Part shown: one piece after another, positions 53,199 to 54,863 of the stretch
Layout of the letters: each line of letters begins with the position of its first letter
How positions within the stretch are numbered: position 1 is the stretch's first letter
Assembly: GCF_046105845.1 (NCBI RefSeq)
Contig: NZ_CP151004.1
Strand: one strand, 5' to 3'
Length of the DNA: 64,000 bases
DNA from: Escherichia coli
GTDB taxonomy: Bacteria > Pseudomonadota > Gammaproteobacteria > Enterobacterales > Enterobacteriaceae
Made by a program: the position numbers and the translations under genes
The notes under the pieces: model-generated
What the model was told of the DNA's origin: nothing
Databases searched by the model: none
The model's input: the letters and a program-made list of their open reading frames with translations, nothing else

Positions 53199-54194
53199 AT
53201 GAAAAAGAAAAGACCCGTACTTCAGGATGTGGCTGACCGTGTAGGCGTGACCAAAATGACGGTCAGCCGCTTTTTGCGTAACCCGGAGCAGGTTTCCGTC
53301 GCTCTACGCGGCAAGATTGCCGCCGCTCTTGATGAACTGGGTTATATTCCCAATCGCGCACCCGATATCCTCTCTAACGCCACCAGCCGGGCGATTGGCG
53401 TCCTGTTACCTTCTCTCACCAACCAGGTTTTTGCGGAAGTATTACGCGGAATCGAAAGCGTCACCGACGCGCACGGTTATCAGACCATGCTGGCCCACTA
53501 CGGTTATAAACCGGAAATGGAGCAAGAACGCCTCGAATCCATGCTCTCCTGGAATATCGACGGCCTGATCCTCACTGAACGTACGCACACGCCGCGCACC
53601 TTAAAGATGATTGAAGTGGCGGGGATTCCGGTGGTGGAGTTGATGGACAGCAAGTCGCCGTGCCTCGATATTGCCGTCGGTTTTGATAACTTTGAAGCGG
53701 CACGCCAGATGACCACCGCCATTATTGCTCGCGGGCATCGCCACATTGCCTATCTCGGCGCACGTCTCGACGAACGTACTATCATCAAACAGAAGGGATA
53801 CGAACAGGCGATGCTGGATGCAGGCTTGGTGCCGTATAGCGTGATGGTTGAGCAATCTTCTTCTTACTCTTCCGGTATTGAACTGATTCGCCAGGCGAGG
53901 CGGGAATATCCGCAGCTGGATGGCGTGTTCTGTACTAATGATGACCTGGCGGTCGGCGCGGCGTTTGAATGTCAGCGTCTGGGGTTAAAAGTTCCTGACG
54001 ATATGGCGATTGCCGGTTTCCACGGTCATGACATTGGTCAGGTGATGGAACCACGGTTGGCGAGCGTACTGACGCCGCGTGAGCGGATGGGCAGTATTGG
54101 CGCTGAACGCCTGCTGGCGCGTATTCGTGGCGAATCTGTGACACCGAAAATGTTAGATTTAGGTTTCACCTTGTCACCGGGCGGATCTATTTAA
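53199..54194 (+). CDS. gntR: Gluconate repressor GntR (LacI family)
   Basis: 331-aa ORF with N-terminal LacI-type HTH (VLQDVADRVGVTKMTVSRFLRN). Confidence 0.95.
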   Translation: MKKKRPVLQDVADRVGVTKMTVSRFLRNPEQVSVALRGKIAAALDELGYIPNRAPDILSNATSRAIGVLLPSLTNQVFAEVLRGIESVTDAHGYQTMLAHYGYKPEMEQERLESMLSWNIDGLILTERTHTPRTLKMIEVAGIPVVELMDSKSPCLDIAVGFDNFEAARQMTTAIIARGHRHIAYLGARLDERTIIKQKGYEQAMLDAGLVPYSVMVEQSSSYSSGIELIRQARREYPQLDGVFCTNDDLAVGAAFECQRLGLKVPDDMAIAGFHGHDIGQVMEPRLASVLTPRERMGSIGAERLLARIRGESVTPKMLDLGFTLSPGGSI

Positions 54195-54273
54195 GCCCAC
54201 AAATTTGAAGTAGCTCACACTTATACACTTAAGGCACGGATGGATATTGCTTCTGATATTGTCCGGCCGGAGA

Positions 54274-54302
54274 ATGTTACCGATAACAGTTACCCGTAAC
54301 AT
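54274..54302. promoter_or_regulatory. Tandem GntR operator-like palindromes upstream of gntK
   Basis: ATGTTACCGATAACAG and GTTACCCGTAACAT (LacI-family type dyads) 30-60 bp upstream of the gntK start. Confidence 0.65.
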
Positions 54303-54332
54303 TTTTAATTCTTGTATTGTGGGGGCACCACT

Positions 54333-54860
54333 TTGAGCACGACTAACCATGATCACCACATTTACGTCTTGATGGGCGTATCGGGCAGCGGCAAATCTGC
54401 GGTCGCAAGTGAAGTGGCGCATCAACTTCATGCCGCGTTTCTTGATGGCGATTTCCTCCATCCACGGCGCAATATCGAAAAAATGGCGTCTGGCGAACCG
54501 CTGAATGACGACGATCGCAAACCGTGGTTGCAGGCGCTGAACGACGCCGCGTTTGCTATGCAGCGCACTAATAAAGTGTCGCTGATCGTCTGTTCTGCAT
54601 TGAAAAAACACTATCGCGACTTGCTGCGTGAAGGTAATCCGAATCTCTCTTTCATCTACCTGAAAGGCGATTTTGATGTGATTGAAAGCCGCCTGAAAGC
54701 GCGCAAAGGCCATTTCTTTAAAACCCAAATGTTGGTGACGCAGTTTGAAACGCTGCAGGAGCCGGGTGCGGACGAAACCGATGTACTGGTGGTGGATATC
54801 GATCAACCGCTGGAAGGTGTTGTGGCAAGCACCATTGAGGTTATTAAAAAAGGCAAATAA
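54333..54860 (+). CDS. gntK: Thermoresistant gluconokinase GntK
   Basis: Track ORF 54312..54860; start refined to in-frame TTG 54333 giving (M)STTNHDHHIYVLMGVSGSGKS (P-loop). Confidence 0.9.
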   Translation: MSTTNHDHHIYVLMGVSGSGKSAVASEVAHQLHAAFLDGDFLHPRRNIEKMASGEPLNDDDRKPWLQALNDAAFAMQRTNKVSLIVCSALKKHYRDLLREGNPNLSFIYLKGDFDVIESRLKARKGHFFKTQMLVTQFETLQEPGADETDVLVVDIDQPLEGVVASTIEVIKKGK

Positions 54861-54863
54861 GTA

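Follow-up and report, generated by a model that had tools for sequence, protein, structure and literature searches.

Several start-type codons stand in frame at the beginning of the gluconokinase gene gntK of Escherichia coli, and the question raised by this locus is which of them initiates translation. The window, that is, the whole stretch of 64,000 nucleotides (nt) that was analysed, contains the gntR-gntK-gntU arrangement of E. coli, with a LacI-type repressor ORF (53199-54194), the gluconokinase ORF, and a 446-aa membrane ORF (54864-56204). A match to positions 54150-54900 of the window was obtained in 5,424 of the 5,426 complete E. coli genomes (identity of 96.7-100%), and the features annotated there are always gntR, gntK and gntU. 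EC1515 is 100% identical to the window over 54150-55150 and 96-98% identical in the flanks, and its RefSeq gntK CDS (WP_000108330.1; positions 1684-2211 of the locus) corresponds to window positions 54333-54860. In K-12 MG1655, gntK (b3437, NP_417894.2) is a 528-nt CDS with TTG as the first codon, and the window is identical to it from -55 to +47. The TTG start of gntK is already known, being present in the RefSeq reference annotation.

The homology with EC1515 stops right after gntU (window position 56200 onward, compared with positions 3556-3751 of the EC1515 locus, L001). At this place, EC1515 carries a RecQ-family helicase gene, whereas the window contains instead a 197-aa membrane ORF on the minus strand (56261-56854) followed by an asd-like ORF (56986-58149). 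The pattern suggests that the site downstream of gntU is an insertion point specific to the strain.

The gntK reading frame and the codons that could open it are laid out as follows.

54306-54308, plus strand: in-frame TAA that bounds the gntK frame upstream, 9 codons before TTG 54333
54312-54314, plus strand: upstream in-frame TTG, rejected as a start (no Shine-Dalgarno sequence, leader of variable length)
54321-54325, plus strand: Shine-Dalgarno (SD) sequence GGGGG, 7 nt before TTG 54333, duplex of -8.4 kcal/mol
54333-54335, plus strand: TTG, the very probable initiation codon of gntK (RefSeq CDS start, first residue of 1KNQ, position 1 of NF008583, comparative data)
54333-54860, plus strand: gntK CDS, 175 codons and TAA, encoding a GntK/IdnK-type gluconokinase (ORF, PDB, RefSeq and profile matches)
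54369-54374, plus strand: internal TTG (codon 13) and first in-frame ATG (codon 14), both rejected as starts (no SD, preceded by translated codons)
54375-54398, plus strand: Walker A motif (P-loop) GVSGSGKS, codons 15-22, read from the sequence

Four start-type codons thus lie in frame before the P-loop, namely, TTG 54312, TTG 54333, TTG 54369 and ATG 54372. The 175-codon gluconokinase ORF, closed by the stop codon TAA 54858-54860, has TTG 54333 in its frame, and translation from this TTG yields (M)STTNHDHHIYVLMGVSGSGKS. The N-terminus quoted in the initial annotation matches this translation except that it omits the initiator Met, TTG at the start position being decoded as fMet. The longest-ORF listing begins at TTG 54312 and gives a product of 182 aa, MYCGGTTLSTTNHDHH..., in which the extension MYCGGTT accounts for 7 residues. 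The first in-frame ATG had been described as lying well inside the ATP-binding domain, and this description has to be corrected: ATG 54372 marks the N-terminal border of the domain, since the Walker A motif begins with the very next residue and the TIGR01313 profile only three residues earlier.

The four candidates differ sharply in their capacity to bind the ribosome. The strength of the SD was estimated from the best duplex that the 3' tail of 16S rRNA can form with the 20 nt preceding each candidate, against a background of 10,000 positions in the window. For TTG 54333, the duplex energy is -8.4 kcal/mol, and only 1.8% of the background positions reach -8 kcal/mol; the pairing segment is found at the distance of a bona fide start (5-10 nt upstream) and is complementary to the 3' end of 16S rRNA. 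The SD is exclusive to TTG 54333 among the four in-frame candidates, the respective values being +0.6 kcal/mol for TTG 54312, +0.6 kcal/mol for TTG 54369, and +1.2 kcal/mol for ATG 54372. Purine-rich SD sequences occur at the equivalent place in all 80 best-scoring species loci, with a mean duplex energy of -8.0 kcal/mol and a range of -11.8 to -5.6 kcal/mol.

In the predicted mode of initiation, the 30S subunit would pair with GGGGG 54321-54325, seven nucleotides upstream of TTG 54333, and the initiator tRNA would read TTG as formyl-methionine, giving rise to the 175-residue protein MSTTNHDHHIYVLMGVSGSGKS... As residue 2 is Ser, the general specificity of methionine aminopeptidase makes removal of the initiator Met probable. 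When the gntK leader was folded from the presumed start of the transcript, its degree of structure did not exceed that of shuffled sequences (z = +1.27), so there is no obvious occlusion of the start site. A riboswitch-like or thermometer-like reading of the leader was considered as well and found to be unsupported, given that the structure is within random expectation.

Comparison across species is the second line of evidence that separates the candidates. One scan of species-representative genomes yielded the set of the best 80 orthologous loci, from Enterobacteriaceae, with 90-99% protein identity, which includes Escherichia, Salmonella, Citrobacter, Klebsiella, Raoultella, Enterobacter, Kosakonia, Kluyvera, Leclercia and Buttiauxella. 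Within these 80 loci, the codon homologous to TTG 54333 is TTG in 77 and ATG in the remaining three (Yokenella, Trabulsiella and Buttiauxella); a synonymous Leu codon was found at this position in none of them, and codon positions 2 and 3 are invariant. The 14 invariant internal Leu positions of gntK are mostly encoded by CTG or other CTN codons in the same loci, and none of these positions is mainly TTG. Downstream of the start, the minor-allele fractions in codons 2-13 are 0.036, 0.017 and 0.207 at codon positions 1, 2 and 3, respectively, and those in the kinase core (codons 14-40) are 0.016, 0.006 and 0.262 (best 80 loci in both cases). Both a restriction to start-type codons and a boundary between noncoding and coding sequence are accordingly located at TTG 54333 in this set.

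The predominance of third-position variation in codons 2-13 indicates that STTNHDHH(I/V)Y(V/I)L belongs to the translated sequence, and the main start consequently cannot be ATG 54372. Initiation at this ATG would produce a 162-residue protein, MGVSGSGKS..., and leave TTG 54333 in the untranslated leader. ATG is the commonest and most efficient start codon, and ATG 54372 is invariant in the best 80 species loci; the invariance, however, is explained by the Met being part of the conserved core. Apart from the lack of an SD, the 12 codons that precede this ATG are under coding-type selection, with variation concentrated in third positions and the pattern STTN.DHH.Y.L conserved, and the alignments with both TIGR01313 and the PDB homologue 3T61 begin three residues before the Met in question (YVLMG and IVVMG, respectively). 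A protein begun at ATG 54372 would lack YVL, the conserved hydrophobic stretch in front of the P-loop. We therefore regard this alternative as exceedingly improbable. Codon 13 (TTG 54369) is CTG in 73 of the best 80 species loci and hence is no start.

The upstream TTG 54312 has more in its favour at first sight. It is the first start-type codon after TAA 54306-54308 and so is the choice of the longest-ORF rule; it is in frame and is found in the closest Escherichia relatives (loci L002-L006); and it would be inside the transcript if transcription begins near position 54283, as proposed below. Translation from this codon would yield the 182-residue protein with the MYCGGTT extension. The leader in which it resides, however, is conserved in neither length nor frame: at least 15 different spacings between the operator anchor CGTAAC and the start occur among the best 80 loci, from 24 to 51 nt and with all residues modulo 3, and an alignment of 23 genera shows large indels in the leader upstream of the gntK start. 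Part of the leader is deleted in Enterobacter and Leclercia, which do not have the segment that carries TTG 54312. Moreover, 36 of the best 80 species loci lack any in-frame start-type codon upstream, and where such codons are present, the associated SD is weak (mean of -1.1 kcal/mol). Nor is the extension present in the RefSeq annotation, in the PDB chain or in the profile NF008583. Together with the failure of the codon to pair with 16S rRNA, the variability of the leader leaves the extension unsupported, and initiation at TTG 54312 appears very improbable. Because this codon is inside the mRNA if the promoter inference is right, its rejection relies on the SD and the comparative evidence, not on transcript boundaries. 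The initial annotation took TTG 54333 to be the sole in-frame start that avoids an unsupported extension; the verdict on the extension stands, with the qualification that a second in-frame TTG does exist 7 codons upstream.

Within E. coli, the start context is nearly uniform. A 35-nt query was used that has the start codon in its middle, so that a differing central codon prevents megablast seeding; with it, the native SD-TTG context was recovered exactly (100% identity) in 5,417 of the 5,426 complete genomes, and the ATG, GTG or CTG variants of the query gave zero matches in these 5,426 genomes.

At the protein level, the same start is found in the available structures and family models. Residues 1-175 of the PDB chain 1KNQ_A (175 aa) align to ORF residues 8-182, counted from TTG 54312, with E = 3e-115 and, apart from the Met at the TTG-encoded position, zero differences in the printed alignment; five further entries (1KO1, 1KO4, 1KO5, 1KO8 and 1KOF) contain the same 175-aa chain. 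The NCBIfam equivalog model NF008583 (PRK11545) recognises the protein as a member with 372.3 bits against a cut-off of 265 (E = 2.6e-112), and the alignment pairs 174 of its 177 positions (1-174) with ORF residues 8-181, which places profile position 1 at TTG 54333. TIGR01313 scores 241.5 bits (cut-off of 113.75), and positions 1-164, the whole model, align to ORF residues 18-180, so that the first aligned residue is Tyr11 in the numbering of the 175-aa protein. Identity as IdnK was rejected because the score of NF007336, 184 bits, is below the cut-off of 304. The protein is recognisable as a P-loop NTPase by GVSGSGKS at codons 15-22, preceded by HIYVLM; Pfam SKI and AAA_33 are above their cut-offs, and all 8 P-loop residues are invariant in the best 80 species loci.

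The RefSeq start, 1KNQ, NF008583, the sole SD and the comparative signature all agree on TTG 54333, and the start codon originally proposed is thereby borne out. The 175-aa GntK is the accepted form of the protein and the form that was crystallised. The PDB sequence, the RefSeq annotation and the profile follow earlier gene models and represent a consensus rather than independent proof of initiation. Taking these lines of evidence together, all of them derived from sequence, we conclude that gntK is very probably translated from TTG 54333.

Dual initiation, with TTG 54333 as the main start and a minor isoform produced from either 54312 or 54372, seems very unlikely: neither of these codons has an SD or comparative support for a minor isoform, and gntK/b3437 is not among the genes in the searched start-site and N-terminomics supplements of TRAINSPOTTER, INRI-seq and TetRP, those of the paper cited for dual initiation included. 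Its absence from these genome-wide data does not count against the start; gntK is expected to be repressed without gluconate. Full-text literature searches on initiation of E. coli gntK (start codon, ribosome profiling, N-terminus) returned no relevant passage. GntK was reportedly purified by Izu et al. in 1996, and that work may report an N-terminal sequence.

Upstream of the start at TTG 54333, the gntR-gntK intergenic region contains a set of conserved elements that could form the gntKU promoter.

54204-54219, plus strand: putative CRP-like site TTTGA-N6-TCACA, read from the sequence and conserved in the genera that retain the region
54247-54252, plus strand: putative -35-like hexamer TTGCTT, inside the block ATTGCTT that is near-invariant in 23 genera
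54270-54275, plus strand: putative -10-like hexamer GAGAAT, in a conserved block
54274-54289, plus strand: GntR-operator-like palindrome 1, ATGTTACCGATAACAG, with one mismatch to ATGTTA-N4-TAACAT
54287-54302, plus strand: GntR-operator-like palindrome 2, CAGTTACCCGTAACAT, with two mismatches, overlapping palindrome 1 by 3 nt

ATGTTA-N4-TAACAT is said to have been described by Peekhaus and Conway in 1998 as the GntR operator consensus. When up to two mismatches are allowed, palindromes 1 and 2 are the only occurrences of this motif in the 64-kb window. Palindrome 1 is nearly identical in the 23 genera, with only four variable columns, and the columns of palindrome 2 are mostly invariant, with variation in the first three and the last. 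The -35-like and -10-like hexamers are separated by 17 nt, without indels in the 23-genus alignment. The proposed promoter comes from phylogenetic footprinting only; a consensus promoter scan returned zero plus-strand promoters upstream of gntK, the region of the -35-like hexamer falling below the threshold. Under this scheme, a predicted CRP-dependent promoter, overlapped by two putative GntR operators, would drive gntK; the mRNA would probably start near 54283, with a poorly structured leader of about 50 nt, and the CRP-like site would be centred at about -71.5 relative to this start.

Two further features of this region can be recorded. At window position 54272, the presumed promoter has a substitution at the strain level: the -10-like hexamer reads GAGAAT, compared with GACAAT in K-12 and 21 of the 22 other aligned sequences and GAAAAT in Esch_ESNIH1. 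The leader between the GntR-like operators and the SD (window 54303-54320) is of hypervariable length, most species having 24-51 nt; the leaders of Klebsiella and Raoultella (positions 1400-1490 of loci L024 and L025) are lengthened by an additional insertion, rich in GC, of roughly 45-50 nt.

Apart from its identification, the TTG start of gntK raises the possibility that a weak start codon is maintained by selection, and the second cistron of the operon is relevant in this respect.

54864-54866, plus strand: GTG start of gntU, 3 nt after the gntK stop (RefSeq CDS start; likewise GTG in K-12)

Across the 78 species in which it was located, the gntU start is GTG in 59, TTG in 19 and ATG in none, and its distance from the gntK stop is +3 nt in 25 species, -1 nt in 27 and -4 nt in 22. 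This layout of the gntK stop and the gntU start is typical of translational coupling. For gntK, the T of the start codon is kept in 77 of the best 80 loci, a level of conservation equalled by only one of the 48 four-fold synonymous sites at invariant gntK residues; the median major-allele count at the four-fold sites is 53 of 80, these counts ignoring phylogeny. That the T of TTG is conserved above 47 of the 48 four-fold sites suggests that purifying selection acts on TTG as such, and not just on the presence of some start codon. In E. coli, this T is fixed in about 5,400 genomes. We tentatively propose, at somewhat below even probability, that the weak TTG start is under selection and that the whole gntKU operon is throttled at the level of translation initiation. 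If this is the case, throttling might limit the levels of gluconokinase and permease or, through coupling, set their ratio. The retention of non-ATG starts on both gntKU cistrons across Enterobacteriaceae suggests that translation of this catabolic operon is held low on purpose.

A separate feature of the gntK-gntU junction is a terminator-like hairpin of 11 pairs (54889-54914) followed by a T-run (window 54889-54924 for the whole element), within the first 20 codons of gntU. The stem is conserved in 30 species, with a covariation term of only -0.29 kcal/mol and one compensatory pair. Because a run of Leu residues is encoded in this region as well, selection on the structure is no more than a possibility. 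The literature reportedly describes an attenuator located between gntK and gntU.

For annotation, the start at TTG 54333 implies that the reference 175-aa model is correct and that both automatic choices, the longest-ORF call (182 aa, TTG 54312) and the ATG-only call (162 aa, 54372), are mistaken. Beyond annotation quality, the significance of this assignment is slight. In E. coli K-12, 81 UUG starts were previously annotated and 9 more were found by profiling, and UUG starts can be efficient (PMC4909307). The TTG start of gntK is a minority case, yet unremarkable.

With respect to known systems, gntK of the window is the same gene as K-12 gntK, which encodes the thermoresistant gluconokinase of the GntI system, and the two show no difference at the start site; the gntR-gntK intergenic regions of the two differ by three substitutions farther upstream, one of these within the -10-like hexamer. 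The thermosensitive paralogue IdnK/GntV shares with the window protein the GntK/IdnK-type fold and the P-loop, both proteins falling under TIGR01313. The mechanism of initiation is like that of the other UUG-initiated genes of E. coli, in which, as in gntK, a canonical SD is combined with a UUG codon read by the initiator tRNA.
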